Positions 4,882 through 61,633 of a DNA stretch of 64,000 nucleotides are shown piece after piece (position 1 is the stretch's first letter; every line of letters begins with the position of its first letter). The translations under genes were made by a program, and so were the position numbers. The stretch comes from Burkholderiales bacterium (GTDB taxonomy: Bacteria; Pseudomonadota; Gammaproteobacteria; Burkholderiales; SG8-39): the NCBI GenBank assembly GCA_041617635.1, contig JBFJOO010000013.1:1761-65760 (forward strand). Direction: 5' to 3'. A model generated the notes under the pieces. The model did not search any database, was not told the origin of the DNA, and worked only from the letters and a program-made list of their open reading frames with translations.

Positions 4882-5301
4882 ATGCTCTGGATCAAGGCCC
4901 TGCACATCATCTTCATGGTCACTTGGTTCGCCGGCCTCTTCTATCTCCCGCGCCTCTTCGTGTACCACGCGCTCGCCGACCCGGCGGACGGCACGAGCAT
5001 CGCGCGCTTCAAGGTGATGGAGCGCAAGCTCTACTTCGGCATCATGACGCCGGGCGCGGTCCTGACGATCGCGTTCGGGACCTGGCTCTGGCTCGGCTAC
5101 GGCTTCGAGGGCGGTTGGCTCTGGGCGAAGCTCGCGGTGGTGGCGGCGATGATCGTCTACCACCTGTGGTGCGGCAAGCTGGTGCAGGACTTCAAGGCGG
5201 ATCGGAACACCCGGTCGCACGTGTGGTTCCGCTGGTTCAACGAGGTGCCGGTGCTCTTCCTCTTCGTCGCGGTGATCCTCGTCGTCGTGAAACCATTCTA
5301 G
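4882..5301 (+). CDS. hemJ: Protoporphyrinogen IX oxidase HemJ (UPF0093/CopD-like membrane protein)
   Basis: An internal ATG at 4882 gives 139 aa starting MLWIKALHIIFMVTWFAGLFYLPRLFVYH, the characteristic HemJ N-terminus. Four TM helices are predicted. Confidence 0.85.
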   Translation: MLWIKALHIIFMVTWFAGLFYLPRLFVYHALADPADGTSIARFKVMERKLYFGIMTPGAVLTIAFGTWLWLGYGFEGGWLWAKLAVVAAMIVYHLWCGKLVQDFKADRNTRSHVWFRWFNEVPVLFLFVAVILVVVKPF

Positions 5302-5915: not shown

Positions 5916-7493
5916 ATGCGCAAGTTCCGGGCCGCGGCGATCGTGGGAGAATCCTCGTCATCGGCGGCTCTCGCTCCGGGCGTCACCGATGGTGGTTCCT
6001 TGCGCCTTGCCCCCTACCTGAAGAGCACTTTGACCGTCGCGGTGGTCGGCGTGGCCGCACACGTGCTGACGCTCTTCGTGCCGCTGCCGCACGTGCCGGT
6101 GCTGTTCCTTGCCGCAGTGGTCATCAGTGCCGCCCGCTGGGGGCTCGGGCCGTCGCTGCTCGCCGCCTTTCTGAGCGTCGTCGCCGGCAGCTACTTCTTC
6201 TACTCACCGATCTACAGCTTCCACGTCGCCAACCCGCAGGATCTCGTTGACCTTGCGATGTTCATTATCGTGGCGGCGCTGACGAGCCGTCTTGCCGCAG
6301 GGGTGCGCGCCCAGGCCCTCGAGGCGAAGCGCGGTCAGGCCGTGATCGGCGGGTTGCATGCCTTCAGCGAGCGCCTGGCGGCAAGCGCCGCCCCTGCTGA
6401 TCTCAGCGCGTCGATCCTGGAGCATCTCGCACCCGTGATCGGCCGGCCGATTCATCTCCTGCTGCCCGACACCGCGGGTCTCGCCGTCGCGGCGTCGGAC
6501 AGCAGCGCGAACCCGCCACCCGCGGAGGTTCTCGCCGCGGCCGATCGCGTGATGACCGGACGTGAGGCGGCGGCGCTCCCGGGCTGGCGCATCGCGCCAC
6601 TGCCGACCGCGCAAGGCGTGGTGGGTGTGGTCGTGGCCCGACAGCCGCAAACGGGGCCCGTTTCGCCGTTCGACGCGGACTATGCCAAGGCGCTCCTCGC
6701 GCAGGCGGCGCAGGCGATCGAGCGGGCGCGCCTGAGCCGGGAGATCGCCGATGCTCGCGTCAAGGCGCAGGGCGAGGCGTTGCGCGAAGCGTTGATCAAT
6801 TCCGTGTCGCACGACCTGCAGACGCCACTCGCGGCAATCCTCGGTTCTGCCACGGTGCTCGAGTCCCTCGGTGATGCGGGTGACCCGGGCGCACAGCGCG
6901 AGTTGGTGACGACGATCCGTGAAGAGGCCGAGCGGCTCGGAAGCTATATCGGCAACGTTCTCGATCTGACGCGCATTCGCTCTGGCCAGATCGCGCCTCG
7001 CCTGGAGCTGGTCGAGTTGTCGGATATCATAAACGGCGCATTGCGTCGCAGAGAGAAGGTGCTCGCTGGCCACTTGCTGCACGTGGAACTGCCGCCCGAT
7101 CTCCCGATGCTGCAGCTCGACCTGTTCCTGATGGAGCATGCGGTCATGAACGTGCTTGATAATGCGGCGAAGTACTCGCCGGGAGGCTCGCGGGTCAGCA
7201 TCGTCGCGTCGGAGCAGGAAGGCGAGGTCGTGCTGGACATCGCCGACTGCGGCAGCGGCGTACCCGCGGAGGACCTCGAGCGGGTCTTCGACGCCTTCTA
7301 CCGTGGTAATGCGCACGCCGGCGCGGCGGCCGGCAGTGGCCTCGGCCTCGCAATCTGCCGTGCATTCGTGACGGCGAATGGAGGCTCCGCGACGATGATC
7401 AGCGCCGGGAGTGGGCGAGGCGCAACGGTGCGCCTGCGCATTCCGGTCCCGGCGGGTGCTGACGCGACGGTGGATCCGACGACCGATGAATGA
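5916..7493 (+). CDS. Sensor histidine kinase, KdpD C-terminal-like (DUF4118 membrane domain + GAF-like + HisKA + HATPase), lacking the N-terminal KdpD/Usp sensor module
   Basis: A DUF4118-type TM block is present (LFLAAVVISAARWGLGPSLLAAFLSVVAGSYFFYSP...DLAMFIIVAALTSRLA). The H-box is NSVSHDLQTPL, and N/G boxes are present (VLDNAAKYSP, DCGSGVP, GSGLGLAICR). At 525 aa it is much shorter than the roughly 890 aa of full KdpD. The exact start is uncertain. Confidence 0.8.
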   Translation: MRKFRAAAIVGESSSSAALAPGVTDGGSLRLAPYLKSTLTVAVVGVAAHVLTLFVPLPHVPVLFLAAVVISAARWGLGPSLLAAFLSVVAGSYFFYSPIYSFHVANPQDLVDLAMFIIVAALTSRLAAGVRAQALEAKRGQAVIGGLHAFSERLAASAAPADLSASILEHLAPVIGRPIHLLLPDTAGLAVAASDSSANPPPAEVLAAADRVMTGREAAALPGWRIAPLPTAQGVVGVVVARQPQTGPVSPFDADYAKALLAQAAQAIERARLSREIADARVKAQGEALREALINSVSHDLQTPLAAILGSATVLESLGDAGDPGAQRELVTTIREEAERLGSYIGNVLDLTRIRSGQIAPRLELVELSDIINGALRRREKVLAGHLLHVELPPDLPMLQLDLFLMEHAVMNVLDNAAKYSPGGSRVSIVASEQEGEVVLDIADCGSGVPAEDLERVFDAFYRGNAHAGAAAGSGLGLAICRAFVTANGGSATMISAGSGRGATVRLRIPVPAGADATVDPTTDE

Positions 7494-8199
7494 TGCGCGG
7501 CCGAGAATCCTGGTCGTGGACGACGAACCGCAGATCCGCCGGTTCCTGCGCTTGGGCCTCGAGAGTCACGGTTACGCCGTCCTCGAGGCCGCGAACGCCG
7601 ACAACGCCCTGCGCACCGCGGTCGCGGCGCAGCCGGAGCTGATCGTCCTCGACCTCGGCCTGCCGGATCGCGAGGGATTCGATGTGCTGGGTGCCCTGCG
7701 CGAGTGGTCACGCGTACCGGTGCTCGTGCTGTCTGTGCGGAGCCGGGAGGACGAGAAGGTTCGCGCGTTCGACCTCGGTGCCGACGACTATGTGGTCAAG
7801 CCGTTTGGCATGGCAGAGCTGCTCGCGCGCATCAAGGCCGCGCTGCGCCGCCGGGTCGAGCGCGAGGCGCCGAAGCCGATCTTCCGCGTCGGCGAGCTCG
7901 AAGTCGATCTGGTCCGCCGCCTGGTGCGCGTGAACAATGCGGACGTCCGGCTCTCGCGCATGCAGTACCGCCTGCTCCAGATCCTGGTGTCGAATGCGGG
8001 CAAGGTCGTCACCCATCACCAGCTGCTGCACGAAGTCTGGGGCGCGGTGCATCATGACGACGTCCAGTATCTGCGCGTATTCATCCGGAAGCTGCGCCGC
8101 CGCATCGAGGCCGATCCGGCGCGGCCGCAATATCTCCTGACGGAGCTCGGCGTCGGCTATCGACTGCGCGCGCCGGATCAGCTCGGCAGTCCTCCGTGA
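7486..8199 (+). CDS. OmpR-family response regulator, KdpE-like
   Basis: The start overlaps the kinase stop (ATGAATGA). The receiver motifs are ILVVDDE, LDLGLPD and KPF. The winged-helix C-terminus (LLHEVWG...YLRVFIRKLRRRIEADPARPQYLLTELGVGYRL) closely resembles KdpE. Confidence 0.85.
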   Translation: MNDARPRILVVDDEPQIRRFLRLGLESHGYAVLEAANADNALRTAVAAQPELIVLDLGLPDREGFDVLGALREWSRVPVLVLSVRSREDEKVRAFDLGADDYVVKPFGMAELLARIKAALRRRVEREAPKPIFRVGELEVDLVRRLVRVNNADVRLSRMQYRLLQILVSNAGKVVTHHQLLHEVWGAVHHDDVQYLRVFIRKLRRRIEADPARPQYLLTELGVGYRLRAPDQLGSPP

Positions 8200-8256: not shown

Positions 8257-8404
8257 GACCTGGCTCTGGCTCGGCTACGGCTGCGCGGGCGGTTGGCTCT
8301 GGGCGAAGCGCGCGGTGGTGGCGGCGATGATCGTCTACCCCCACGAGGTGCCGGTGCTCTTCCTCTTCGCCGCGGTGATCCTCGTCGTCGTGAAACCGTT
8401 TTGA
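8257..8404 (+). pseudogene. Decayed duplicate of the hemJ 3' end
   Basis: Positions 8257-8338 align with hemJ 5079-5160 with about 4 mismatches. Positions 8344-8404 align with hemJ 5241-5301 with about 4 mismatches and end in a stop. The intervening ~80 nt of hemJ are missing, and there is no start codon or 5' part. Confidence 0.85.
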
Positions 8405-8418
8405 TCCGTTCGTGACCC

Positions 8419-10050
8419 TCAGCGCTGCTTGACCTGCTTGAGGAGCGCGTTGCCTTTCACGGCCAGGCGGTTGTAGTCGCGGGTCAGCGCTTCGTACGCC
8501 GCGACGGCGCGATCCAGACCGCGCACGTCGCCGCTTTCCAGCTCCCCGATCTGATGCACCCGCGTGTTCACCATCTGGACCTGTAGTTCACGCAGATCCT
8601 TCGAGACCGCGAAGATCTGCGCAAGCGTCTCGCTCGCCCGGCGTCGCGCGAGATCCCGGTACGGAATCGTGGTGTCCGCAACGAGGCTGCGCGCCTTCGC
8701 AGCGTTCTCGCGCGCGACGGCGAGATTCCGGGCTTGGATGCCCTGCCCCGACCGGTCCAGGTACGCGATGCTTTCGTTGACGGTCTGGACGATGGACTCG
8801 AGATTGCGAATGACCGGGTTCAGCTCGAGCATGCGCTCGAGGAGCTGCTCGAGCTGCTGCTCGTTCACTACCGCATAGGCGCGCCCGCCCAGGGCCTCCG
8901 CGAGGCTCTGGAGCTCCGCCAGGTCCCGCGCCGTGATGCCCACCCCGACGATCTCGTATTCGGGCTTGATCTTGCGGTTCGCCAGTCGCTCCCGCACGAT
9001 CTCCGCGCCCTGGCGCCTGAAACACTCGTCGGTGCCGCCGGTGATGATGAGCACGCTCTTGTTGACGCCTTCGAATCGGGCGGGATCGTCGAAATCGTAG
9101 GCCGCATTGATGACGGCATCGACGAGCGTTCGCTGGCCGCGTGTCTTCACCTGTTTCACGCTCTCGCGGATGATCGGACCATTGTTCAGGCTGAACCCGA
9201 CGACGAGCTCGGAAGCCGTTCCATCGCATGCGCCGCCGAAGTGCCGGTACGCCAGGTTGTCGCGATCGGCGTGCTGGCGCCCGAGCACGCTCGTGAGCGC
9301 CCGCCTGGCGACGTCCAGCCGGGTGGTGTCGGTGAACGGGCTCTCCATGTCCGACGACCGGTCGAGGATGATCTGGGTGTTCTCCTGCACCTTGCCGTCG
9401 GCGACGACGCTGCCGGTCTCGACGCTCTTCGCCGCCCTGCCGATCGCCTCGCGGAGTCCCTCCGCCGTGGACGCGGTGTAGTAGCCTCCGCCGGCAAGAT
9501 CCGCGATACGTCGCAGCACCATCGCCTCCTCCGGCTTCAGGATGTCGAAGCCGACCACGTGCACCGCGATGCCCCGCTGCGCGTGGAGTCGTTGCGCGAC
9601 CTCGGCCGGATCTCGATTGCAGGTCTCCTTGCCGTCGGTCAGCAGAATGATCGCCTTCTCCCCGGCCGCGGCGGAGAGCTCGTCGGCCGCGGCCTCGAGC
9701 GCCGTCGCGATCGGCGTAGCCCCGCGGGTGCGGATGGCGCTGATCCCGGCGAGCAGCGCGGCGCGGTCCAGTGGCGCCAAGGCGACCACGCGCTCGATAT
9801 CCTTGCAGTCGCGCTCGCGACGGCCTCCGTACACGTACAGGCCCGCGTTGATGCCGGTCGCCGGCAGGGTCTTGATCAGGTCTTGCAGCGCGTCGCGCAC
9901 CGCGTCGAAGCGGGTCTGGCCTTCAAGAGCCGTGCGCATCGACGCGGAAGCGTCGATCACGAACACGACGTTCTTCGCGCCCCAGGTCGGCGGCGCGAGA
10001 AGCAGGGAAAGCAGGAGCAGCGGTACTGCGACTGGAATCCTGGTGGTCAT
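8419..10050 (-). CDS. Secreted tandem von Willebrand factor A (vWA) domain protein with a C-terminal coiled-coil region
   Basis: AGGAGG lies 7 nt upstream of the ATG. A Sec signal peptide is present (MTTRIPVAVPLLLLSLLLAPPTWGA). The first vWA domain has an intact MIDAS motif (VFVIDASASM ... LLTDGKETC). The second has a degenerate MIDAS (ILDRSSDM ... IITGGTDEC). The last ~150 aa are heptad-like and helical. Confidence 0.8.
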   Translation of the reverse strand: MTTRIPVAVPLLLLSLLLAPPTWGAKNVVFVIDASASMRTALEGQTRFDAVRDALQDLIKTLPATGINAGLYVYGGRRERDCKDIERVVALAPLDRAALLAGISAIRTRGATPIATALEAAADELSAAAGEKAIILLTDGKETCNRDPAEVAQRLHAQRGIAVHVVGFDILKPEEAMVLRRIADLAGGGYYTASTAEGLREAIGRAAKSVETGSVVADGKVQENTQIILDRSSDMESPFTDTTRLDVARRALTSVLGRQHADRDNLAYRHFGGACDGTASELVVGFSLNNGPIIRESVKQVKTRGQRTLVDAVINAAYDFDDPARFEGVNKSVLIITGGTDECFRRQGAEIVRERLANRKIKPEYEIVGVGITARDLAELQSLAEALGGRAYAVVNEQQLEQLLERMLELNPVIRNLESIVQTVNESIAYLDRSGQGIQARNLAVARENAAKARSLVADTTIPYRDLARRRASETLAQIFAVSKDLRELQVQMVNTRVHQIGELESGDVRGLDRAVAAYEALTRDYNRLAVKGNALLKQVKQR

Positions 10051-10154
10051 GAGGCGACCTCCTTTTCTGCAGATTGCAGTCCGCGAAGCGGCACGACGCG
10101 CGGATCATGCGGGCCAATGGGCGGCGCGCTTCGCGTCGACACTAGCCCAACTAC

Positions 10155-11474
10155 TCAGTCGCGGATCTCTTTCGCGCAGCGAAAGCCGATGGTATCTCTC
10201 CTGGTCTCGGGGGTGGCTGCGTACCGGTAGGCGGCCCTCAGCTCGGAAGCGTCGGAGCTCCAGTCGCCGCCGCGGACGGCGCGCATCGCGGGCGAACCCG
10301 CCGCCGATCCGTTGAAGGGATTCGCGCCCGCGGGACGCGTGTAGAAATCGCGGTCGTACCAGTCCCGTACCCACTCCGCGACGTTCCCCGCGAGATCGTA
10401 CACGCCGTGGGCGCTGCGGCCCGCCGCGTAGGCGCCGACCGGCGCGCGCTCGGAATGCCGGTCGTCCTGCGACTTGTCGCGCCATTCTTTTGCGCAGTTC
10501 TGGTCGCAGAAATTGGCGCGCGTGCCGCCGGGCGGGTCGTCGCCCCACGGGTAACGGCGCTTGCCTCCGCCGCGGGCGGCCATTTCCCACTGTGCCTCGC
10601 TGGGCAGGACCTTCCCATGATGCCGGCAGTACGCGTCCGCCTCCTGCCACGTGACTCCGATGACCGGGTAGTCCGGATTCTTGGCCGGCGCCGACTGCGG
10701 AGTGCCGGGGGTTGCCGCTTTCGCGAACCGGTGGAAATCGGCTTCCGTCACTTCGTGCCGGTCGATGTAGAACGCATCCAGCGCCACCTCGTGGTCGGGA
10801 CGCATCGGCTCCATCCAGGTCGGAGACAGCGTGGGATGGGCCTTTAACGCGCTCGCGTACGCGTCCCTGACTTCCTCCGCAGTGCTCCCCATCGTGAACT
10901 TGCCGCCCGGGATCAGCACCATGCCGGTCGGCGCGGCATCGTGGAGGATCCGGTACGCAGAGATTCCACCCGCCACCAGCACCAGCCCGAGCACCGCCGC
11001 GATCGCATAGCGCGTCGCCAGGCGCAGACGCCGGAACCGCGCCCACCATCCGCGCTCGACGACGGGTTCCGGGGGCGGCTGCTCGAGCCGCACCGCGATC
11101 GACTCGAGGAGCTCCTGAAAGCCGGGATGGCTCAGTTCCCCGGACCAGTTCACGAGCGAGGCGGACTTGATGCGCTCGAACGGCATCGGCGGATCGACGG
11201 CGTCGATCTTCACCGGAATCAGGACGCTGCGCATGCGTCCCTGCTCCGCCTCCGAGAGGACCCAGTCGCTCTCGAGCGCCGCTCGCGACCAGACGACGAC
11301 GACGCAGCGGGCCGTGCCGAGCTCCCTGCGAATCTCGGCATCGATTCGCCGCCCCGGCCCGATCTCCCGATCCCACCATATTGACCAGCCCGGCTGGTGC
11401 TTCTCGAGCGTTGCGACGAGCCGCTCGACCCAGCGCCGGTCCTTGCTCGAGTAGCTGACGAAGATGTCGCTCAT
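10155..11474 (-). CDS. Membrane protein with an N-terminal TIR domain, a single TM helix and a C-terminal FGE-sulfatase (SUMF1/PvdO-like) domain
   Basis: A TIR_2-type N-terminus is present (DIFVSYSSKD...CVVVVWSRAALESDWVLSEAEQG). Arg-rich flanking sequence (RGWWARFRRLRLATR) precedes the TM helix YAIAAVLGLVLVAGGISAY, which predicts N-in topology. FGE-domain motifs follow (MVLIPGGKFTMGS, PVIGVTWQEADAYC, LPSEAQWEMAARGG, YDLAGNVAEWVRDWY, RAVRGGDW, IGFRCAKE). Confidence 0.8.
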   Translation of the reverse strand: MSDIFVSYSSKDRRWVERLVATLEKHQPGWSIWWDREIGPGRRIDAEIRRELGTARCVVVVWSRAALESDWVLSEAEQGRMRSVLIPVKIDAVDPPMPFERIKSASLVNWSGELSHPGFQELLESIAVRLEQPPPEPVVERGWWARFRRLRLATRYAIAAVLGLVLVAGGISAYRILHDAAPTGMVLIPGGKFTMGSTAEEVRDAYASALKAHPTLSPTWMEPMRPDHEVALDAFYIDRHEVTEADFHRFAKAATPGTPQSAPAKNPDYPVIGVTWQEADAYCRHHGKVLPSEAQWEMAARGGGKRRYPWGDDPPGGTRANFCDQNCAKEWRDKSQDDRHSERAPVGAYAAGRSAHGVYDLAGNVAEWVRDWYDRDFYTRPAGANPFNGSAAGSPAMRAVRGGDWSSDASELRAAYRYAATPETRRDTIGFRCAKEIRD

Positions 11475-11542: not shown

Positions 11543-12811
11543 TCACGGCGTCTGATCGGCATGCACCGCGGTCGCCGGATACTCGGGACGGATGTCGAAT
11601 CGCAGCAGGCGTTGGGCGGTGCGCAACGCGCTTTCCGCATCCTCGGGGCGGTTCGCGCGCGCGAAAATGAATCCGAGATAGCTTGCCCCGTCGGGCGGTG
11701 GCGCGACGATCTGGCCGACGTGGGCCGCGATGGTCACGCCCGTGACGCCCGGCACCGACTGCGCCGCAGTAAGGCCCTCGATCCCGAGATAGATGCCGCG
11801 TCGTGGAACGGGGATCATCATCACCCCCGTCGCATCGTTCGCCCCATCCGCGCCTTGCACGGGGCGCGCCTCGCCAATCGCCTGGCGCAGGATCAGCTCC
11901 TCCAGCGTCATGCCCAGGGTGTGCGTGAGCATCCGCCCGCACAGCCCGCCAATCGAGCGCGGCGCGACTTCCAGCATCCAGATCCCCCGGTCGTTGATGC
12001 GCATTTCGGCGTGGATCGACCCGGTCACCAACCCGGCGGCGCCGCACGCCCGCGCCACTTCCCGATGGATGCGGTGCTGACTCTCGTGCGGCAAGCGGGA
12101 CGGCGTGACGTAGATGGTCTCCTCGAAATAGGGCCCGTCGAGGGGATCGGGTTTGTCGAACAGGGCGAGGACGTTCAGGCGCCCGCGCTCCAGTGTGCCC
12201 TCCAGCGCGTACTCGCGACCCGGAACGAACTCCTCGATGACGAGGCCCAGTTCCCGGGCGTCGCGGTCGGCCCGCGACTGGATCGCACGCACCCAGTTCA
12301 CGGCCCGCACGAGCGCGTCCGAATCATCGGCGCGGATCACGCCGCGGCTGGCCGACAATCGGCGCGCCTTCACCACCACGGGAAACTGCAATCCATCCAA
12401 TGGTGTGCGTGGATCCGCTCCGGTCGGCAGATGCCGGAATCCGGGGCACGGCAAATCGTGCTTTCGCAGCAGTTGTCGGAACGCGAGCTTGTCGCGCACC
12501 TGCCGCACTGCGTGGACGGCGTTTCCCGGCAGGCCGAGACGCTCCGTCAGCAGCGCCGCGAGCTCCACACCCGAATCATCGACCGCGAGCACGGCATCGG
12601 CGCGGCCGTCGATCTCCCGCAGCACGGTGTCTGCCGCCTGCTCGGGCCGGTCGAAGTGGAGCGCCATGATAGGCGGCAGGCCCCAGGAGGGGGCGAGCTG
12701 GTGACAGTAGTCGGCCGCAGCCACGATCGCCACGCCCAGCTTCCGCGCGGCGGCGAGAAAATCGTCGTTGCGGTAGCTCGACGTCGGCAGCAGCAACAAG
12801 ACGCGCTTCAC
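11543..12811 (-). CDS. ATP-grasp domain protein (carboxylate-amine/thiol ligase type)
   Basis: GTG start 9 nt after the radical SAM stop. The product is 422 aa with an ATP-grasp pattern (DKLAFRQLL, FPVVVKARRLSASRGV, VIEEFVPGREYALEG, HAEMRINDRGIWMLEVAPR). Confidence 0.75.
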   Translation of the reverse strand: MKRVLLLLPTSSYRNDDFLAAARKLGVAIVAAADYCHQLAPSWGLPPIMALHFDRPEQAADTVLREIDGRADAVLAVDDSGVELAALLTERLGLPGNAVHAVRQVRDKLAFRQLLRKHDLPCPGFRHLPTGADPRTPLDGLQFPVVVKARRLSASRGVIRADDSDALVRAVNWVRAIQSRADRDARELGLVIEEFVPGREYALEGTLERGRLNVLALFDKPDPLDGPYFEETIYVTPSRLPHESQHRIHREVARACGAAGLVTGSIHAEMRINDRGIWMLEVAPRSIGGLCGRMLTHTLGMTLEELILRQAIGEARPVQGADGANDATGVMMIPVPRRGIYLGIEGLTAAQSVPGVTGVTIAAHVGQIVAPPPDGASYLGFIFARANRPEDAESALRTAQRLLRFDIRPEYPATAVHADQTP

Positions 12812-12820
12812 GGTTTCGAC

Positions 12821-14278
12821 TCAGAAAGATTGCAGCTGCGATTGGGTGGGCTCCGCGCAGCAGTACCACGGCTCCGACAATCTCGGGATCGGCGACCCAA
12901 GATCCGCGGCGAGCTCCGGCGCCTCGCGCCCGGCCACCGCGTGCGCCGCGCGCCAGATGGCTGCGAAAGCATCGCGGCGCGCGAGCCCCTCTTGTTCGCT
13001 GCGCGCCACGCTTTCCTGCAATGCCTGCTGCAGACGGTCCACCCGCGGATCGGAATGGCGCCACCGATAGCCGAGAAGCTCGGGATCGAAAGCCACCAGC
13101 TTCTCCCCGAAGCCGGGCAGCTGCAGGAGGTAGGAACCCTCCGGCACGAGCAGCCGGATGGTGAGCTGCACCGGAGGAACGCTTTCCACGAGCTCGAGCA
13201 TGACGAGCCGCTCCAGCAAGGCGATGTAGCCCTCCAGCGTCGTCCACGGCGTGAACGCGACGAAGGTCGGGGCAAGCGCGATGCCGGCTGCGCGGGCGAG
13301 CGCCACCGCCCGGTCGAAGTCGCGACTGGTGTGGTTCTTCGCGAGGAGGCGCAGGACGTCGTCGTCCACCGCCTCCACCGCAGTGGTGATGAACAGGCAC
13401 CCGCAGCGTCGCAATTCGGGCAGGAGATCGGCGTGATCGATGAGGTGCTGGACCTTGATGGTCGCGTCGAACGTGACCTCGGGAAACGCATCGTTCAAAG
13501 CGCGAACCAGCTTGAGCGCATGGGTGGGACCGTTGAAGAAATCCGGGTCGCCGAAGGAAATATGGGTGGCCCCTTCGCTCACCTGCTGCGCGATGTCCTG
13601 CATCACGACGTCCGCCGGGACGATCCGGAACTTCCCCTGGTACACGGGAACCACCGGGCAATGGCGGCACAAGTGCTTGCAGCCGCGGCTGCCCTCGGCG
13701 AATCCGACCATGCGCGTCGATCCGCCCGGCAGCACGAGATGGGCATAGCGCGAGAGCTTTGGCAGGACGCTGCGGTCCGGCACCGCGAAGTGAACCTTCC
13801 CCAGACTGATGACCGGCTCGCTCTGGGTCGTTGCCGCTTCGCCGGCGCGGAGTCGCTCGCACAGGGAAAGCAGCGCCGGCTCCAGTTCGCCGCCGAGCAC
13901 CGTGCTCACGCCCAGCGCCCGCAGCCGTGCCTCGTTCATGGGCGCATAGAGCCCGTAGACGCAGATGTGCGCGCCCGGCGCGAGCCGCCGGATGCGCGGC
14001 AACGCCTCGATCGCAATGCGCGTGGCCGTGTGCATCCCGACATAGATCGCCACCAGGCGCGCGCCACGCAGGGTTTCGGGATCGAGCTTCTGCAGTGAGA
14101 GATCGAGACAAGTCACCGCGAACTCCGCGCGCTTCAGCCACGCAGCAGGTTCCGCCAATGCGAACGGCTGCCGTCCCAGCTCGTACGGATTGATGAGAAC
14201 GACCCGGAACGAATCGTTCGCCGTGGCCGGGCGCGGACCGACGCGGGACAACGTTGCTGGGGAAAGCGGCTTGTTCAT
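12821..14278 (-). CDS. Radical SAM protein with a B12-binding-like N-terminal domain and a C-terminal CCAEP tail (CUAEP/CCAEP-tail radical SAM family, as I recall the family name)
   Basis: The CxxxCxxC cluster motif is GSRGCKHLCRHCPV. A Rossmann-like N-terminal domain is present (VVLINPYELGRQP...). The C-terminus is ...EPWYCCAEPTQSQLQSF, with the two Cys encoded TGC TGC. Confidence 0.75.
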   Translation of the reverse strand: MNKPLSPATLSRVGPRPATANDSFRVVLINPYELGRQPFALAEPAAWLKRAEFAVTCLDLSLQKLDPETLRGARLVAIYVGMHTATRIAIEALPRIRRLAPGAHICVYGLYAPMNEARLRALGVSTVLGGELEPALLSLCERLRAGEAATTQSEPVISLGKVHFAVPDRSVLPKLSRYAHLVLPGGSTRMVGFAEGSRGCKHLCRHCPVVPVYQGKFRIVPADVVMQDIAQQVSEGATHISFGDPDFFNGPTHALKLVRALNDAFPEVTFDATIKVQHLIDHADLLPELRRCGCLFITTAVEAVDDDVLRLLAKNHTSRDFDRAVALARAAGIALAPTFVAFTPWTTLEGYIALLERLVMLELVESVPPVQLTIRLLVPEGSYLLQLPGFGEKLVAFDPELLGYRWRHSDPRVDRLQQALQESVARSEQEGLARRDAFAAIWRAAHAVAGREAPELAADLGSPIPRLSEPWYCCAEPTQSQLQSF

Positions 14279-15098: not shown

Positions 15099-15326
15099 GT
15101 TTGGACTCCACAAGATCCCACGACCTCAATCGCCGCATTCCGCAGTCGTTGCGGTTACGACATCTCGTCTACCCAGTATAGCAACGCGCTTCCTGAACCA
15201 CCTAGCAGCTAGGGCGCGATCACCCTTCCTGCAAGCAGGGGAAAGGCGCGACACGCCGGCCCTCGCTTGAACATCGTGAGTGCCCAGCGCACACTCTGCC
15301 CACGGGCCCAACGGTCAGGACACGTC

Positions 15327-15971
15327 ATGCCGGGCAGAGCGGAGCGCTGGCTCGAGACATCGGATGTCGTACCGATGTTCCCGACCCTGGTCTGGAAGTT
15401 CCAGATCAAGCGCGACTTTCGCCAGGCGATGGATGCCGACATCCTGAACGCGCTGGCTGCGATCCGGGGGAAACTCCCGCTGCTCGCGCCGGGTGAGGGT
15501 TGGCAGTCGGAACAGCGCCTGCACGAGCTTGCGGCGTTCGAGGCGCTCACGATCTGTGTACGCGACGCGGCCGCGAGCGTGCTCCGGTTCCTGCGCATCG
15601 AGTCCGGCACGCTGAAGATCACCGGTTGCTGGGCGAACGTGCTCGCAGCCGGCGCAGCGCATCGCGCGCATAGCCATCCGAACAACTTCCTGAGCGGGGC
15701 CTACTATCTCGCCACGCAAACCGGCGCGGACACGATCAACTTCCACGATCCGCGGGCCCAGACCACCGTGCTGCGGCCGCCGGTGACGGCGCTCAGCGCC
15801 GAGAACACCGACCAGGTCGTGGTGCGCGTGACGAACGGCGCAATGCTGCTTTTCCCTGCTTGGCTATGCCATTCGGTCGATGCCAACCGCAGCAGCGACG
15901 AGCGAACGAGCATCAGCTTCAACCTGATGTTCGCGGACTTTGCCGAGGGCTTGAGCGCACCGCTGTGGTGA
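15327..15971 (+). CDS. TIGR02466-like putative 2OG-Fe(II) oxygenase family protein
   Basis: The product is about 214 aa with CWANVLAAGAAHRAHSHPNNFLSGAYY and FPAWLCHSV motifs, which resemble that conserved hypothetical family. The start was chosen at the internal ATG 15327. Confidence 0.55.
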   Translation: MPGRAERWLETSDVVPMFPTLVWKFQIKRDFRQAMDADILNALAAIRGKLPLLAPGEGWQSEQRLHELAAFEALTICVRDAAASVLRFLRIESGTLKITGCWANVLAAGAAHRAHSHPNNFLSGAYYLATQTGADTINFHDPRAQTTVLRPPVTALSAENTDQVVVRVTNGAMLLFPAWLCHSVDANRSSDERTSISFNLMFADFAEGLSAPLW

Positions 15972-16114
15972 TGCCGGTTCTCTGCCGGATCGCCGACCGC
16001 GCGACGCCCGACGGGTATTTCCCGATGGCTGAAGGTGGATTAATTTGCTAGCCTCGCTCCGGACAGCAAAGGGAGGAGACCCGCGCGGCGGCAACGTGCG
16101 CCGGGGGACAATCG

Positions 16115-17260
16115 ATGGCCGACTCCGCGCCGACGCGGATCCGCGACCCCGAGATCGACGCCGAGACGGGCGCGGACGGCACGCGCACCATACGGCTCGG
16201 CGGAGCATGGGACATCCGCGCGCTCGAGACCCGAACGCGCGCGCTGGGCGGTGAGCTCGCGGCGTTTGCCGCGCGTGACGCCTGGGACCTGACCGGCATC
16301 GAGCGCCTCGATCACGTTGGCGCGCTGCTCCTCTGGCGCGCGTGGGCAAGGCAGCGTCCCGAGCGGCTGCGGCTCGCACCCGCGCAGGAGCTCTTCTTCG
16401 AGAACCTCGCCCATGCCGACGAAGGGGAGGCCACCGCGCGTCGCCGGTCGCTGCTCGACCCGCTCGCGGCCCTCGGGCGCCGCGCGCTCGGCGTCTGGGG
16501 CCACCTCGTCCGCATCGTTCGCCTCGCCGGGCAGGTCATCCTCGACGGTGCGTGGGTGATCGCCAACCCCTCGCGCGGGCCCTGGCGCGAGCTGTCGGCG
16601 ACGATCCACCGGGCGGGCGCGCAGGCGCTCCCCATCACCGCGCTCGTCGGCTTTCTCATCGGGATCGTGTTGAGCTATCTTTCCTCGGAGCAGCTGCGCA
16701 CGTTCGGCGCCGGCATCTACGTCATCAACATCGTCGGCATCGGGATCATCCGCGAGCTCGGACCGGTGCTCGCGGCGATCCTCGTGGCCGGTCGCTCCGG
16801 CTCGGCCATCACGGCGCAGCTCGGCGTGATGCGGGTGACCGAGGAGCTCGACGCGCTCAGGGTGATGGGGATTCCTGCTGGCGTCCGGCTCATCCTGCCG
16901 AAGGTCGTCGGGCTCGCGATCGCGGTGCCGCTCCTGGTGGTGTGGACCAGCGCGGTCGCGTTGATCGGTGCGATGCTCGCGGCGCGCCTCGAGCTGGACA
17001 TCAGCTTCACCCTGTTCATGCAGACGCTGCCGGTCGCGGTGCCGACCGCGAACCTCTGGCTCGGGCTGGTGAAGGGCGCCGTGTTCGGCGCGCTGATCGC
17101 GCTGACCGCTTGCCACTATGGCCTGCGGATCCGGCCGAACACCGAGAGCCTCGGCGCCGGCACCACGCAATCGGTGGTGACCGCGATCACGATCGTGCTC
17201 ATCGTCGACTCGCTGTTCGCGGTCGCGTTCTCCCACATCGGACTCGAGCTCCGTGGCTGA
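16115..17260 (+). CDS. MlaE-family ABC transporter permease with an N-terminal STAS-like extension
   Basis: The MlaE core is present (ITALVGFLIGIVLSY...ELGPVLAAILVAGRSGSAITAQLGVMRVTEELDALRVMG), preceded by an extension of about 110 aa. Confidence 0.8.
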   Translation: MADSAPTRIRDPEIDAETGADGTRTIRLGGAWDIRALETRTRALGGELAAFAARDAWDLTGIERLDHVGALLLWRAWARQRPERLRLAPAQELFFENLAHADEGEATARRRSLLDPLAALGRRALGVWGHLVRIVRLAGQVILDGAWVIANPSRGPWRELSATIHRAGAQALPITALVGFLIGIVLSYLSSEQLRTFGAGIYVINIVGIGIIRELGPVLAAILVAGRSGSAITAQLGVMRVTEELDALRVMGIPAGVRLILPKVVGLAIAVPLLVVWTSAVALIGAMLAARLELDISFTLFMQTLPVAVPTANLWLGLVKGAVFGALIALTACHYGLRIRPNTESLGAGTTQSVVTAITIVLIVDSLFAVAFSHIGLELRG

Positions 17261-18125
17261 GCGCAGGATCGACAAGTCGGCGGAGATTCCTCGGCCCGGG
17301 CCCGGCGCGGAGTCCCCGGGAAGATTGACCGCGCGCGCGCGGACTCCGGAACGACCCGTCATCGCCGTCAAGGGCCTCTGGACCGAGTTCGACACCCACG
17401 TCGTCCATCGCGGCATCGATCTCGAAGTCGATGCCGGCGAGATCCTCGCGCTCGTCGGCGGGTCGGGTAGCGGCAAGACGACACTCCTCCGGCAGATGAT
17501 CGGGCTCGAGCGTCCGAGCCGCGGCAGCGTGGAGGTTTTCGGCTTCAACCTGCGGCAGGCTCCGACGGCGATCCGCGCGAAGATCCGCAAGCGCTGGGGC
17601 GTGCTGTTCCAGGAGGGCGCGCTCTACAGCGCGCTGCCGGTCTACGACAATCTCGCGCTTCCTCTGCGCGAGCTGCGCACGTTCGACGAGGACTTCATCC
17701 GCGACATGGTGCTGCTCAAGCTCGACATGGTGGACATCGAGCGGCGCCACGCCCACCGGATGCCGTCCGAGCTCTCCGGCGGGATGGTGAAGCGCGTCGC
17801 CCTCGCGCGCGCGCTCGTGCTCGAGCCGGAGCTGCTGTTCCTGGACGAGCCAACTGCAGGACTCGACCCGGACCGCAGCGAAAGCTTCGTCACGCTGCTC
17901 GCGTCCCTTCGCGAGCGGCTGGGGCTCACCGTCGTCATGGTGACACACGATCTCGACACGCTGGTCTCGCTCGCCGACCGTGTCGCAGTGCTATTCGCGG
18001 GCGAGCTGATCACGCTCGGCACCGTGTCGGAAGTGGTGCGTGTCGATCATCCCTTCATTCACAATTTCTTCGGCGGCGATCGGGGCCAGCGCGCATTGAG
18101 CGTGCTGCAGCCGCTTGCCCGCTAG
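17253..18125 (+). CDS. ABC transporter ATP-binding protein (MlaF-like)
   Basis: The GTG start overlaps the permease stop. Walker A is GGSGSGKTT, the signature is LSGGMVKR and Walker B is LLFLDEPTAGLD. Confidence 0.85.
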   Translation: MAERRIDKSAEIPRPGPGAESPGRLTARARTPERPVIAVKGLWTEFDTHVVHRGIDLEVDAGEILALVGGSGSGKTTLLRQMIGLERPSRGSVEVFGFNLRQAPTAIRAKIRKRWGVLFQEGALYSALPVYDNLALPLRELRTFDEDFIRDMVLLKLDMVDIERRHAHRMPSELSGGMVKRVALARALVLEPELLFLDEPTAGLDPDRSESFVTLLASLRERLGLTVVMVTHDLDTLVSLADRVAVLFAGELITLGTVSEVVRVDHPFIHNFFGGDRGQRALSVLQPLAR

Positions 18126-18144
18126 GGGAAACCGGGAGAACAAG

Positions 18145-19080
18145 ATGGAAAACAGACCCTATGCGCTGGCCGCGGGATTCTTCGTGCTGCTCCTCTGCGT
18201 CGCGCTCGTCGCGAGCGTGCTCTGGCTCAACCGCGACGAACGCGTGGGCGGAGTGCCCTACGTGGTCACGACGACCCGCGCCGTCTCCGGGCTCAAGGTC
18301 GAGGCGCCGGTACGCTATCGCGGCGTGGACGTCGGCAAGGTCGAGACCATCCGGTTCGACCCGGGCGAGCCCGGCCAGGTCGTGATCGGCATCACGGTCG
18401 ATCCGGACGCGCCAATCACGCGCAGCACCTACGCGCAGCTCGGTTTCCAGGGCGTCACCGGGCTGTCGTTCGTGCAGCTCGACGACGCCGGCGCCGCGCG
18501 CGTGCCGCTTGCGACCTCGGCCGATCTGCCGGCACGCATCCCGATGCGACCGTCGTTGTTCGACACGGGCGAAGGACTGGTCGCAGCGTTCGGCGAGGTG
18601 GTCGACAGCATGAAGAAGCTGCTCGACGACGACAACCAGAAGGTGCTCATCGGCACACTTGCCCGGTTCGACGCCGCCGCCGCGCAGGCGACGCAGCTCG
18701 CGGCGAGCCTGGAGCCGGCCGCGGCGTCGCTCGCACCGCTGCTCGCCGATGCGCGCGCCGCGGTGAAGGACGCGCGAAGTGCGGTGAAACGCGCCGAGGA
18801 CATGGTCGAGTCGATGTCCAGGCTCGCCGCGCAGCTCGAGGAGCGCGCGCCGGCGCTCGGCCAGGTCGGCGACAACGCCGCCGATGTCGGCGCGGCGGCA
18901 CGCGCGATCAACAACGAGACCCTGCCGCGACTGAACGCGCTTGCCGACGAGCTGCGACGCGAGGCGCGCGTGCTGGACCGGGTGCTGACCGGGTTGGCCG
19001 ATCAGCCCCATAGCCTCGTGTTCGGTCCGCCGCCGCCGCGCCCGGGTCCTGGCGAGGCCGGCTTCGAGGCCGGGCGCTGA
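18145..19080 (+). CDS. MCE/MlaD-family substrate-binding protein
   Basis: An N-terminal TM anchor is followed by an MCE domain (GLKVEAPVRYRGVDVGKVETIRF) and an Ala-rich helical C-terminus. Confidence 0.8.
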   Translation: MENRPYALAAGFFVLLLCVALVASVLWLNRDERVGGVPYVVTTTRAVSGLKVEAPVRYRGVDVGKVETIRFDPGEPGQVVIGITVDPDAPITRSTYAQLGFQGVTGLSFVQLDDAGAARVPLATSADLPARIPMRPSLFDTGEGLVAAFGEVVDSMKKLLDDDNQKVLIGTLARFDAAAAQATQLAASLEPAAASLAPLLADARAAVKDARSAVKRAEDMVESMSRLAAQLEERAPALGQVGDNAADVGAAARAINNETLPRLNALADELRREARVLDRVLTGLADQPHSLVFGPPPPRPGPGEAGFEAGR

Positions 19081-19082
19081 CC

Positions 19083-19673
19083 ATGCGCAGGCTCGCGCTT
19101 ATCGGCGTCGCGCTCGCGCTCGCCGCGTGCGTCAACGGTCCGCCGCCGCGGCCGATCGAGTACGACTTCGGCCCCGGCGCGGCGACGCGGGAGGACTCGC
19201 CGCGCCTGCGACGCGAGATCATGGTCGCGGGCGTGACTGCGCCCGCATGGCTCGACTCGCCCGCGCTCATCTACCGCCTCGCATATCGCAATGCGTCGCA
19301 ACCCCAGGCGTACGCCGAGAGCCGCTGGGTCGCGCCACCCGCGGAGCTCTTCACCGCGGAGCTCCGTCAGCGGCTCGCCGCCACGACCCGCAGCGGCGTG
19401 CTCGCGCCAGCCGACGGGGTGCGCACCGCGGTGACCCTGCGCGTCGAGCTGCTGGAGTTCAGCCAGGTGTTCGATGCGCCCGATCGCAGCCATGCGCTCG
19501 TCCGTGTGCGCGCGGCGCTCGTCGCTGACGGACGCCTGGTTGCACAGACGAGCTTGAGCGCCGACCAGCCGGCCGCGAGCGCCGACGCCGCGGGTGGCGC
19601 TCGCGCGCTCACCCTGGCCGTCGATGCCGCGATCGACCGGCTGATCGGCTGGACTGCCGACGCGCTCAAGTGA
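19083..19673 (+). CDS. ABC-type transport auxiliary lipoprotein (DUF330/PqiC-like)
   Basis: A lipobox is present (LALAAC). The gene lies 2 nt after the MCE gene, in the position typical for the lipoprotein component of Mce-like systems. Confidence 0.65.
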   Translation: MRRLALIGVALALAACVNGPPPRPIEYDFGPGAATREDSPRLRREIMVAGVTAPAWLDSPALIYRLAYRNASQPQAYAESRWVAPPAELFTAELRQRLAATTRSGVLAPADGVRTAVTLRVELLEFSQVFDAPDRSHALVRVRAALVADGRLVAQTSLSADQPAASADAAGGARALTLAVDAAIDRLIGWTADALK

Positions 19674-26800: not shown

Positions 26801-27919
26801 TCAGGCCGCCGCGCCCCAGACCTCCGACGCCACTTCGACCACGAGCGCGAGCTTGCGGCGCTGATCGTCCTCGGTGAGGCGGTTGCCCGCCGCGGTGCTC
26901 GCGAATCCGCACTGCGGCGAGAGGCACAGGTCCTCGAGCGGGACGTACTTCGCCGCCGCCTCGATGCGGCGCTTGAGCGCGTCCTTCGATTCGAGCCGCG
27001 GCGTCTTGGTCGAGATCAGTCCGAGCACGACTTTCTTGCCTTTGGGCACGAACCGCAAGGGCGCGAAATCACCCGCGCGGTCCGTGTCGTACTCGAGAAA
27101 GAAGCCGTCCACCTGAGTCTCGTTGAATACCGCCTCGGCCACGGCGTCGTAGCCGCCCGCGGCCATCCACATGCTCTGGTGATTGCCCCGGCAGGTGTGC
27201 ATGGTCACCGCCAGCGAGGGCGGACGCTCGGCGATGAGCGAGTTGATGACGCGCGCGTACTGCGACGGCAGCCGCGCCGGATCCTCGCCGTCGCGACGCA
27301 CCTGCGCGCGGATCGACTCGTCGCACAGGCAGGCGAAAGACACGTCGTCTATCTGCAGGTACGTGCACCCGGCTGCCACGAGATCCCGGATCTCCGCGCG
27401 ATAGGCGCGGGCGATGTCGCCCCAGAACTCGTCCATGTCCGCGTACGCGTCCGGGTTCACCACCCGTCGTCCGCCGCGCATGTGGAGGTAGGTCGGTGCC
27501 GGGATGCAGAGCTTGGCCGTTCGCGTGGCCACGGATTTGAGATAGTTGAAGTGATCGACCATTACCGGTCGCGTCCGGCGCACCTTGCTCTTCACGACCA
27601 TCATCGAGCGCGTCTCGGCCGTGCTGCCATCCTCGCCCTTGAACTGGATCGCGTAGTTCGACTGGGTGGCCACGATGCCCTCGAGGCCGGTGAGAAAATC
27701 GACGTGCCAGAAGGCGCGGCGGAACTCCCCGTCGGTGACGGCCGGGAGACCAGCTTCCTCCTGCAACGCCACCACATCCCGAATGCACCGGTCTTCCACG
27801 ATCTTCAGCTCGGGCGCGCTCATGCGCCCCGCTTGCGCCGCATCGCGGGCCGCGTGAAGCTCCGCGGGCCGCAGCAGGCTCCCCACGTGATCGGCGCGAT
27901 ACGGTGCGCTTTTCGTCAT
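26801..27919 (-). CDS. Cobalamin-independent methionine synthase II family (MetE C-terminal-like) protein, paralogue A
   Basis: The product is 372 aa starting MTKSAPYRADHVGSLLRP. Zn-ligand motifs are present (TMHTCRGN, LSPQCGFAS). Confidence 0.75.
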   Translation of the reverse strand: MTKSAPYRADHVGSLLRPAELHAARDAAQAGRMSAPELKIVEDRCIRDVVALQEEAGLPAVTDGEFRRAFWHVDFLTGLEGIVATQSNYAIQFKGEDGSTAETRSMMVVKSKVRRTRPVMVDHFNYLKSVATRTAKLCIPAPTYLHMRGGRRVVNPDAYADMDEFWGDIARAYRAEIRDLVAAGCTYLQIDDVSFACLCDESIRAQVRRDGEDPARLPSQYARVINSLIAERPPSLAVTMHTCRGNHQSMWMAAGGYDAVAEAVFNETQVDGFFLEYDTDRAGDFAPLRFVPKGKKVVLGLISTKTPRLESKDALKRRIEAAAKYVPLEDLCLSPQCGFASTAAGNRLTEDDQRRKLALVVEVASEVWGAAA

Positions 27920-46347: not shown

Positions 46348-46441
46348 GGTCTACCTCGCTCCAGGGACGCGCAACGCGCCCATTATGCGCCTCGTCCGGT
46401 CGGTTGGAATCCCCGCCGTGGGGTGGGCGGGGGCTTGCCGC

Positions 46442-48382: not shown

Positions 48383-48452
48383 GGGGATATACTAGGGGCT
48401 TGCCCCTTGTTCGTTCTGGGGGATATACAAGGGGCTTTCCCCCCTTGTTCGT
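48383..48452. repeat. Doublet of REP-like palindromic units (GGGGATATAC[A/T]AGGGG - loop - CCCCTTGTTCGT)
   Basis: Two adjacent units (48383-48414 and 48417-48452) each form an 8-9 bp ACAAGGGG/CCCCTTGT hairpin. The same unit recurs at 61566-61633. Confidence 0.8.
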
Positions 48453-61565: not shown

Positions 61566-61633
61566 GGGGATATACAAGGGGCACGCCCCTTGTTCGTCCG
61601 GGGATTTACAAGGGGGATTTCCCCCTTGTTCGT
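61566..61633. repeat. Doublet of REP-like palindromic units (same family as 48383-48452)
   Basis: The units are 61566-61597 (GGGGATATACAAGGGGCACGCCCCTTGTTCGT) and 61600-61633 (GGGGATTTACAAGGGGGATTTCCCCCTTGTTCGT). They lie between the pilJ stop and the chpA start. Confidence 0.8.

Follow-up and report, generated by a model that had tools for sequence, protein, structure and literature searches.

Genes and features of the locus

The window analysed here is a stretch of 64,000 nucleotides (nt) from a Burkholderiales bacterium of the GTDB lineage SG8-39 (GenBank assembly GCA_041617635.1, contig JBFJOO010000013.1, positions 1,761 to 65,760 of the forward strand). It carries two adjacent genes, here called A and B. 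The product of gene A joins a TIR domain to a domain of the formylglycine-generating enzyme (FGE)-sulfatase fold (FGS) through one transmembrane (TM) helix, and the product of gene B is a predicted exported protein with two vWA domains and a helical C-terminal region. It is very probable that the two proteins form one membrane-spanning functional unit.

An earlier note, made from the letters of this stretch and a list of its open reading frames (ORFs), had placed both genes on the same strand, with B beginning 104 nt downstream of A. The ORF calls agree with it and assign the two to the minus strand, and both are real genes. The G+C content of the window is about 68% throughout, and long spurious antisense ORFs are therefore frequent. 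A ribosome-binding site, AAGGAGG, stands in front of gene B. The spacer between the genes showed no unusual RNA structure (fold z-score 0.12) and no Rfam match, by which a structured RNA was ruled out there, and a promoter and terminator scan of the region from 8 to 15.5 kb gave results no better than those of shuffled sequences. The features of the pair are collected in Table 1.

Table 1. Coordinates of the features of the gene pair (positions in the window, unless another locus is named; aa, amino acids)
Feature	Position	Strand	Evidence
Gene A: TIR - TM - FGE/FGS-like single-pass membrane protein (predicted), 439 aa	10155..11474	-	ORF, translation, Pfam, AlphaFold2
TIR domain, predicted cytoplasmic, aa 1-135	11070..11474	-	Pfam TIR_2, profile matches, AlphaFold2 beta-alpha pattern
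Codon of E75, candidate catalytic glutamate (W71-x-x-x-E75)	11250..11252	-	codon checked, alignment
Single TM helix, aa 156-174, YAIAAVLGLVLVAGGISAY, Arg-rich stretch ahead	10953..11009	-	hydropathy, AlphaFold2 helix 152-179
FGE-sulfatase-fold (FGS, C-type-lectin-like) domain, predicted periplasmic, aa 183-435, without the FGE Cys pair	10170..10928	-	PF03781, Foldseek
A-B spacer, 104 nt, Shine-Dalgarno AAGGAGG ahead of B	10051..10154	-	sequence read
Gene B: predicted exported tandem vWA and helical-bundle protein, 543 aa	8419..10050	-	ORF, Pfam VWA twice, AlphaFold2
Putative signal peptide of B, aa 1-24, ...LLLSLLLAPPTWG/A	9979..10050	-	hydrophobic h-region
vWA domain 1, intact MIDAS (D33-x-S35-x-S37, T112, D139), C82 and C144 conserved	9415..9978	-	Pfam, alignment
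vWA domain 2, degenerate MIDAS (D230-x-S232, ITGG), C275 and C343 conserved	8863..9393	-	alignment, AlphaFold2
C-terminal four-helix region of B, aa 397-543	8422..8862	-	AlphaFold2
Secreted protein of about 260 aa	L010 4395-5168, L011 8648-9619, L014 6800-7585	-	no Pfam/PADLOC match

Architecture and topology of the gene A product

Pfam TIR_2 (PF13676) matches aa 4-112 of the A protein with an E-value of 1e-22 (81.3 bits against a cut-off of 28), and Pfam FGE-sulfatase (PF03781) covers aa 183-435 over profile positions 3-255 of 255 (E 6e-52). The TIR_2-type N-terminus and the complete FGE-sulfatase fold which the earlier note had described are thus both borne out. The AlphaFold2 model, built from a 60-sequence alignment, has a mean predicted local distance difference test (pLDDT) score of 92.7 and consists of a TIR-like beta-alpha N-terminal domain, a helix at residues 152-179 and a C-terminal domain of the FGE fold; the beta-alpha-beta pattern of the TIR part is modelled with pLDDT above 90. 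Orthologues of A are 38-70% identical.

The TM helix is preceded by six Arg within 15 residues and followed by one. All 10 A orthologues show a hydropathy peak between the TIR and FGE domains and have one TM helix each, and the Lys and Arg residues flanking it, summed over the orthologues, number 47 on the N-terminal side against 23 on the C-terminal side. The argument for an N-in orientation that had been made from the Arg-rich stretch and the single helix therefore holds. The predicted single-pass topology, with the TIR domain in the cytoplasm and the FGS domain in the periplasm, is strongly supported.

A profile made from nine B-paired TIR domains found 7uxr, PdTIR (3h16) and AbTIR (7uwg/8g83) as its best matches, with E-values of 5e-14 to 1e-11. 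Among the PDB sequences, the bacterial TIR domains that hydrolyse nicotinamide adenine dinucleotide (NADases) ranked above SARM1, Toll-like receptors (TLRs) and plant TIR proteins. In the profile-to-PDB sequence alignment by which its position was checked, E75 falls on the glutamate of AbTIR 'kdWtnyEld' and PdTIR 'keWpqkEl'. This residue is unchanged in 10 of 10 B-paired A orthologues. E77, which had been put forward together with E75 as candidate catalytic glutamate, varies among the same orthologues (D/G/S) and was dropped for this reason; E75 remains as the candidate. The A TIR domain is likely to be an NADase, judged by its score as a TIR and by the alignment of its glutamate with those of the NADases.

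Foldseek matches of the full-length A model are dominated by the FGE domain. The relatives of this C-terminal domain include FGE, CalU17, EgtB, PvdO, ToxD, TvpA and PorK, and the matches to the FGE structures 6muj, 2q17 and 1y1e have E-values of 1e-17 to 4e-20. FGE enzymes carry a copper-binding catalytic cysteine pair (C336/C341 in the human enzyme). In the alignment to 6muj, 2q17 and 6s07, the catalytic 'LCHDSYC' of the enzymes lies opposite a gap and 'SSDASE' of A, so that the pair is absent, as had been noticed earlier, and no cysteine was found in this segment in any B-paired A orthologue. Identity as an FGE/SUMF1 enzyme was rejected because the catalytic pair is missing from the otherwise present fold. 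The A protein stays below the cut-off of every curated NCBIfam enzyme family; the best is GldK with 122 bits against 350, and identity as a PorK/GldK lipoprotein of the type IX secretion system was rejected on this score. A non-enzymatic, lectin-like nature of the FGS domain is strongly supported.

Two further candidates concerning this domain were set aside. No repeat involving 10155-10400 was found in the 64-kb window, which leaves the signature of a diversity-generating retroelement (DGR) without support, and the C-terminal FGS segment is conserved among the A orthologues; a DGR-diversified variable protein of the FGS/CLec type was accordingly rejected. A clade-specific FGE insertion (aa ~199-225) as the element that docks B was rejected as well, since it is lacking in the paired loci L015 and L024. 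Several FGE proteins from other or unknown contexts carry it as well.

Architecture and predicted export of the gene B product

Pfam VWA recognises two stretches in B (E 1e-27), the first being aa 27-199, and a second Rossmann-like vWA domain is seen in the AlphaFold2 model (pLDDT 89, predicted template modelling score (pTM) 0.83). In the alignment of 13 B orthologues the columns of the metal-ion-dependent adhesion site (MIDAS) are invariant in vWA1 and degenerate in vWA2, in agreement with the one intact and one degenerate site read earlier from the single sequence. The cysteine pairs C82/C144 and C275/C343 are also invariant in this alignment. The C-terminal region is modelled as helices 397-439, 443-468, 474-506 and 509-542, with pLDDT above 90; because of the pTM of 0.83, these are read as folding back on one another as a bundle in the model. 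The long coiled coil of the earlier note is thereby replaced by four predicted long helices, which are more likely packed together than drawn out as one extended coil.

The N-terminus of B has a signal-like hydrophobic h-region, and those of the orthologues resemble a type-I signal in some cases and carry a lipobox (AVGC or GQGC, for example) in others. Together with the two invariant cysteine pairs, these features strongly support the earlier prediction of Sec export and a periplasmic protein, soluble or lipid-anchored.

For vWA1 Foldseek gave BatB and the anthrax-receptor vWA domain, and for B the top matches were the matrix and adhesin vWA proteins PTMP1, collagen VI and SpaC. Identity of B with the Bat or TerY proteins was rejected (BatA 17 bits against 380, PRK13685 36 against 432, TerY E 0.007). 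The mean pairwise identity is 46-48% for the FGE, vWA1, vWA2 and TIR domains and 30% for the helical region of B. The divergence of the helical region may fit a ligand-facing role, for which it is weak evidence.

Distribution and synteny of the pair

Full-length B is extremely rare: 13 clusters were found among 5.8e9 proteins and about 20 representatives among 1.84 billion cluster representatives, and the loci comprise 2 in 185,579 species genomes and eleven from metagenomes. The pair is accordingly no part of a core genome. An FGE-domain gene lies directly upstream of full-length B on the same strand in all 13 distinct contexts with upstream DNA, and in 12 of the 13 this gene encodes a TIR-TM-FGE protein. 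Lack of synteny, which would have gone against the idea of the earlier note, was thus not seen. The loci with TIR-TM-FGE and B are the window with L001 (near-identical, counted as one context), L005, L010, L011, L012, L013, L014, L015, L023, L024 and L025/26. The called genes overlap by a few nt at one extreme and lie about 145 nt apart at the other.

The flanking genes differ at almost every locus. In the window and L001 the pair is flanked by radical S-adenosylmethionine (SAM)/ATP-grasp genes and a convergent two-component system. L005 has YcaO/TfuA, L023 a kinase fragment, L024 an IS3 transposase together with an additional TIR gene, and L025 a protein of the PLD family. PDC-S01 (E 4e-92) and SoFic (E 9e-31) adjoin the pair in L013, and AbiEi/AbiEii are present in L014. 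The locus G+C ranges from 0.45 to 0.68, and the named hosts are alpha- and gammaproteobacterial metagenome-assembled genomes. Across ten loci the pairwise identities of A correlate with those of B (Pearson r=0.92, Spearman 0.72). Because of the strict pairing, the differing flanks, the G+C range and these correlated identities, A and B are, as far as sequence comparison goes, a compact mobile cassette inherited as a whole, and not a core locus or a fortuitous neighbourhood. Carriage of the pair by prophages was rejected, since no B relative was found in the viral contigs of IMG/VR.

Several loci show additional or altered genes. A TIR-only gene lies just upstream of A in two B-paired loci (L014 2312-2701, L024 1313-2302). 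Directly downstream of B, in convergent orientation, three loci carry the gene of the secreted ~260-aa protein (Table 1), which may be an optional third component and is absent from the window; a weak relative of it adjoins the DUF4062 fusion described below (L022 ~6036-6335, minus strand). In the alphaproteobacterial locus L005 (5508-7267) B is split at the second vWA domain into ORFs of 349 and 237 aa, the result of either an assembly frameshift or a pseudogene. A TM helix is lacking altogether in some TIR-FGE proteins.

The wider vWA2-helical family

An exhaustive profile search revealed that vWA2 together with the helical region, that is the C-terminal two-thirds of B, is a separate recurring module. 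Many proteins of 350-400 aa begin with a short basic tail, in many cases KKWY, which is followed by a single TM helix and then by the module with its degenerate vWA domain and four-helix region; they make up a large uncharacterised family (P0153-P0265). It also occurs fused to other heads, in P0162 as CHAT protease - TM - vWA2-helical and in P0165/L022 (L022 4088-5725) as DUF4062 - TM - vWA2-helical. DUF4062 has been reported as a TIR-like NADase that gives antiphage defence (bioRxiv 10.64898/2026.05.01.722283). The soil metagenome contigs L016-L021 carry a signal-peptide-caspase(PF00656)-FGE gene followed by full-length B, the caspase replacing the TIR domain. Both genes are frameshifted there, with the same split alignments in L017-L020, and this cassette is either decaying or bears recurrent assembly errors.

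The vWA1 domain is present in 13 of 13 loci with an FGE partner and absent in the three examined forms without an FGE neighbour (L022, L027, P0293). It follows from the family forms that the vWA2-helical module would be extracytoplasmic and wired across one TM helix to proximity-activated effectors of the death type, and that the effector, be it TIR, caspase, CHAT or DUF4062, would be interchangeable. Moreover, architectures of the 'effector-TM-FGE-sulfatase' type are very common, with TIR, caspase, kinase and trypsin heads.

Relation to known systems

No description of the A-B pair was found in literature searches. The earlier note had known of no characterised system of this composition, which is correct for the pair itself, but the vocabulary of TIR, FGS and vWA domains is known from the conflict systems predicted by Kaur, Burroughs, Iyer and Aravind (PMC7159879, PMC8195603). 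These share with the pair the TIR and caspase effectors, the FGS and vWA domains and the swapping of effectors; in both the FGS domain is always C-terminal to the other domains, and the proposed logic is the same, the FGS domain binding a molecule of the invader and the effector then being unleashed. The FGS domains of the predicted conflict systems are, however, described as intracellular (PMC8195603), whereas the TM helix of A would put this domain outside the cytoplasm, and the vWA partner of A is predicted to be Sec-exported and carries the vWA2-helical module. The ternary conflict systems are built on a MoxR AAA+ ATPase and a VMAP or iSTAND protein (PMC7159879). No MoxR/AAA_3, VMAP or STAND gene adjoins the pair in the window, L005, L010, L011 or L023-L025, and membership in the MoxR-vWA ternary systems was rejected for this reason. 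Conflict systems are also often coupled to DGR reverse transcriptases, while the A-B pair has neither reverse transcriptase nor repeat. The pair is a variation on the known TIR/FGS/vWA vocabulary, with no NTPase and with the FGS domain and a Sec-type vWA partner apparently exported. The FGE-sulfatase-like sensors of STAND immune proteins are also among the closest things described (PMC13581612). Other proteins of the FGE fold (SUMF1/FGE, EgtB, PvdO, PorK/GldK, TvpA) share the full-length fold with A; A differs from FGE in the missing catalytic cysteine pair and in the fusion of the fold to a TIR domain through a TM helix.

With the TIR NADase effectors (AbTir, PdTIR, BtTir and the TIR domains of Thoeris, CBASS, Pycsar and SPARTA), to which its TIR_2 domain is closest in profile, A shares the WxxxE glutamate. 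The known TIR NADase systems sense in the cytoplasm, where nucleotides, Argonaute or phage proteins are the trigger, and the TIR domain of A differs from them in being tethered by a TM helix to a domain predicted to lie outside it. No ThsA, cyclase, SAVED or Ago partner was found in the window neighbourhood, and no SIR2/SLOG gene there or in any orthologous locus. PADLOC gave partial matches to the ThsB model (73 aa, E 2e-5); with these partial matches only and no ThsA (SIR2/Macro-SLOG) gene, membership in Thoeris was rejected. The DUF4062 system 'Swarozyc', which is activated by a phage portal protein (bioRxiv 10.64898/2026.05.01.722283), is linked through the L022/P0165 fusion to the vWA2-helical module of B. 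Unlike Swarozyc, this fusion would be anchored in the membrane and carry its module in the periplasm; it is related to the window system but not identical with it.

The analogy with animal TLRs drawn in the earlier note holds for the general layout, both being single-pass proteins with the TIR domain inside the cytoplasm and a ligand-binding domain outside it. It does not extend to orientation or ectodomain: in A the TIR domain is N-terminal and the topology type II, whereas in TLRs it is C-terminal and the topology type I, and the FGE/C-type-lectin fold of A is unrelated to the leucine-rich repeats of TLRs. With its TIR domain nearer to the NADases as well, A was rejected as a TLR homologue, and the resemblance is one of analogy, not of architectural homology.

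Proposed mechanism

The chances are about even that A and B constitute a two-part envelope-facing receptor, in which a periplasmic FGS-vWA complex would control the clustering and activation of a cytoplasmic TIR NADase. By Rosetta-stone logic, [TIR-TM-FGS] plus [vWA1-vWA2-helical] is the split equivalent of [TIR-like-TM-vWA2-helical], and FGS and vWA1 would be the non-covalent joint of the split system. In such a receptor the vWA1 domain of B would use its MIDAS to dock onto the FGS domain of A, and the vWA2-helical module would serve as the extracytoplasmic sensing or oligomerising element. An event at the envelope would then alter the oligomeric state of the B-FGS complex; attack by a phage, or some other periplasmic ligand coming from an invader, is the most plausible candidate. 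TIR NADases are activated by induced oligomerisation. Since a single TM helix can pass on only proximity, clustering of the TIR domains would be the signal, upon which they would hydrolyse NAD+ using E75, with growth arrest or abortive infection as the outcome. Depletion of NAD+ is favoured over nucleotide signalling because the cassette has no receptor for a TIR-made signal.

The pair is probably a defence or abortive-infection module. This role is suggested by the swappable effectors of the death type, by rarity and mobility, by the defence neighbours in L013 and L014 and by the extra TIR genes in L014 and L024. In the literature the FGS domain is proposed to be a lectin-like sensor that binds the invader and is coupled to TIR, caspase and vWA domains (PMC7159879, PMC8195603, PMC13581612).

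A number of observations weigh against this interpretation. The window has no defence island, the neighbours of the pair being the radical SAM/ATP-grasp genes, an Mla-like transporter and the two-component system; neither a tRNA nor an integrase turned up near the pair in the window; PADLOC, run on A, B and their neighbours, gave partial TIR-domain matches only and no system; and in IMG/VR, where B has no relative, the matches of A concern the FGE domain only. Hypervariability of the ectodomains as the signature of a sensor was not seen, FGE, vWA1 and vWA2 being as conserved as the TIR domain. The conserved glutamate is no proof of NADase activity: in a single-sequence PDB search the top match of the A TIR domain was that of TLR2 (E 4e-4), which is non-catalytic and has the same residue, so that this Glu is necessary but not sufficient for catalysis. 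The docking of vWA1 onto FGS is deduced from co-occurrence, in about 13 loci and three counter-examples. Finally, distant TIR-TM-FGE proteins occur without B, in L006 with no partner and in L109 (1773-6022) with a following TPR-S and patatin phospholipase gene in its place, so that A can function in other partnerships.

Alternative explanations

A fortuitous neighbourhood of two unrelated genes is practically negligible as an explanation. Genes of vWA and FGE-fold proteins are both common in bacteria, and nothing further speaks for it; the recurrence of the pair in unrelated contigs takes the adjacency beyond chance, and the synteny data (13 distinct contexts with the same order, strand and tight spacing between flanks that differ in nearly all of them) together with the correlated divergence of A and B refute it. 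The possibility of an envelope module without immune function, serving adhesion, matrix or signalling, with the TIR domain as a scaffold or regulatory NAD-binding domain, is unlikely but keeps an appreciable chance. The metabolic and regulatory neighbourhood and the negative PADLOC result are as expected from it, vWA and C-type-lectin folds are classical adhesion domains, as the top Foldseek matches of B illustrate, and a convergent two-component system adjoins the pair in the window and L001. That neighbour is kept in no other locus, however, and the TIR profile is nearer to bacterial NADases than to scaffold TIRs. The interchangeable partners (caspase, CHAT, DUF4062 NADase) are of the death type, defence genes adjoin the pair in L013 and L014, and the extreme rarity and patchy spread suit an accessory conflict gene better than a structural gene.

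A guard or restraint role of B is quite unlikely. B would act like an antitoxin in the periplasm that keeps A monomeric. Once B ran short, for instance through a phage-imposed block of host translation or secretion, or through its own degradation or titration, A would self-associate and its TIR domain would deplete NAD+. Strict pairing and co-evolution apply equally to such an arrangement, the order A-then-B and the tight linkage are those of many toxin-antitoxin-like pairs, the decay of the two genes went together in L016-21, and an invariant MIDAS in B is consistent with constitutive high-affinity binding. It fits poorly, since P0162 and P0165 carry the vWA2-helical module and the effector in one polypeptide, which leaves no room for a releasable inhibitor. 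B is also large, its three domains going beyond what simple restraint needs, and the split B beside an intact A in L005 would be lethal, unless it is an assembly error. Lower still is the probability that the FGE fold of A is a periplasmic enzyme of another chemistry (like EgtB, OvoA, PvdO, ToxD or CalU17) which modifies B or another exported substrate, the TIR domain regulating or reporting. In its favour, every one of the nearest solved folds belongs to an enzyme or an enzyme-like protein, the domain is complete with good conservation (46% mean identity), and the invariant cysteines of B could be targets. Against this stand the missing copper-binding pair, the lack of a DinB-like iron domain as in EgtB/OvoA (only the lectin-like half is present) and the failure of any curated enzyme family to reach its cut-off. 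Moreover, TvpA, a DGR variable protein, and PorK/GldK use the same fold purely for binding, and it is a proposed sensor in STAND immune proteins (PMC13581612).

Neighbouring genes and repeats in the window

Directly upstream of A, on the same strand, lie a radical SAM gene and an ATP-grasp gene (11543-14278, minus strand). The former (12821-14278, minus strand) encodes a CUAEP/CCAEP-tail radical SAM (seleno)protein (NCBIfam NF040546, 606 bits; C-terminal ...WYCCAEPTQSQLQSF) which also matches the ArsL-like radical SAM proteins with 271 bits; the latter (11543-12811, minus strand) encodes an ATP-grasp protein or L-amino-acid ligase (PF13535, LAL_C2). They also precede A in L001 and in no other locus, and probably belong to a separate small-molecule pathway. 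Being absent from all other loci, these genes and the two-component genes downstream were ruled out as parts of the module.

The 3' end of a membrane-protein gene, which from its sequence ('TWLWLGYGFEGGWLWAKLAVVAAMIVYH...') may be HemJ-like, is duplicated at 5079-5297 and 8257-8400 (plus strand; 95-97% identity, a 75-nt deletion). The second copy sits immediately beyond the stop codon of B. Between the copies lie the genes of a KdpD-like histidine kinase and an OmpR regulator (5916-8199), an arrangement that points to an insertion of this two-component pair at the site.

At 15267-19673 (plus strand) follow a TIGR02466-family 2-oxoglutarate-Fe(II) oxygenase and an Mla-like ABC system (MlaE, ATPase, MlaD and auxiliary lipoprotein), an ordinary system of envelope-lipid transport which is unlinked to the A-B pair in the other loci. 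The window further contains a tandem duplication at 45591-47203 (1159-nt spacing, 70-78% identity), paralogous segments 13.7 kb apart at 26895-27260 and 40575-40940 (72-88% identity), and two copies of a short palindromic element of the 'GGGGATATACAAGGGGC' type at 48383-48442 and 61566-61625.

Biological significance

It is tempting to regard the pair as a bacterial transmembrane pattern-recognition receptor, in which a periplasmic lectin-like/vWA/helical sensor would respond to signs of an invader or of envelope damage and switch on a cytoplasmic TIR NADase by clustering. It might then be a member of a wider undescribed class with the same vWA2-helical ectodomain wired through a single TM helix to death effectors of the CHAT, DUF4062 or TIR type. 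This broader view is possible but tentative, and somewhat more doubtful than not. With two genes in about 3.1 kb, the pair is small enough for a direct test in a heterologous host.

To our knowledge, nearly all characterised bacterial immune sensors, every TIR system included, detect infection in the cytoplasm. If the proposed receptor were real, bacteria would also use outside-in signalling through single-pass receptors for immunity, having reached the logic of the TLRs independently. It would, moreover, give a function to the very common 'effector-TM-FGE-sulfatase' architectures and to the large uncharacterised family of TM-anchored vWA-helical proteins.

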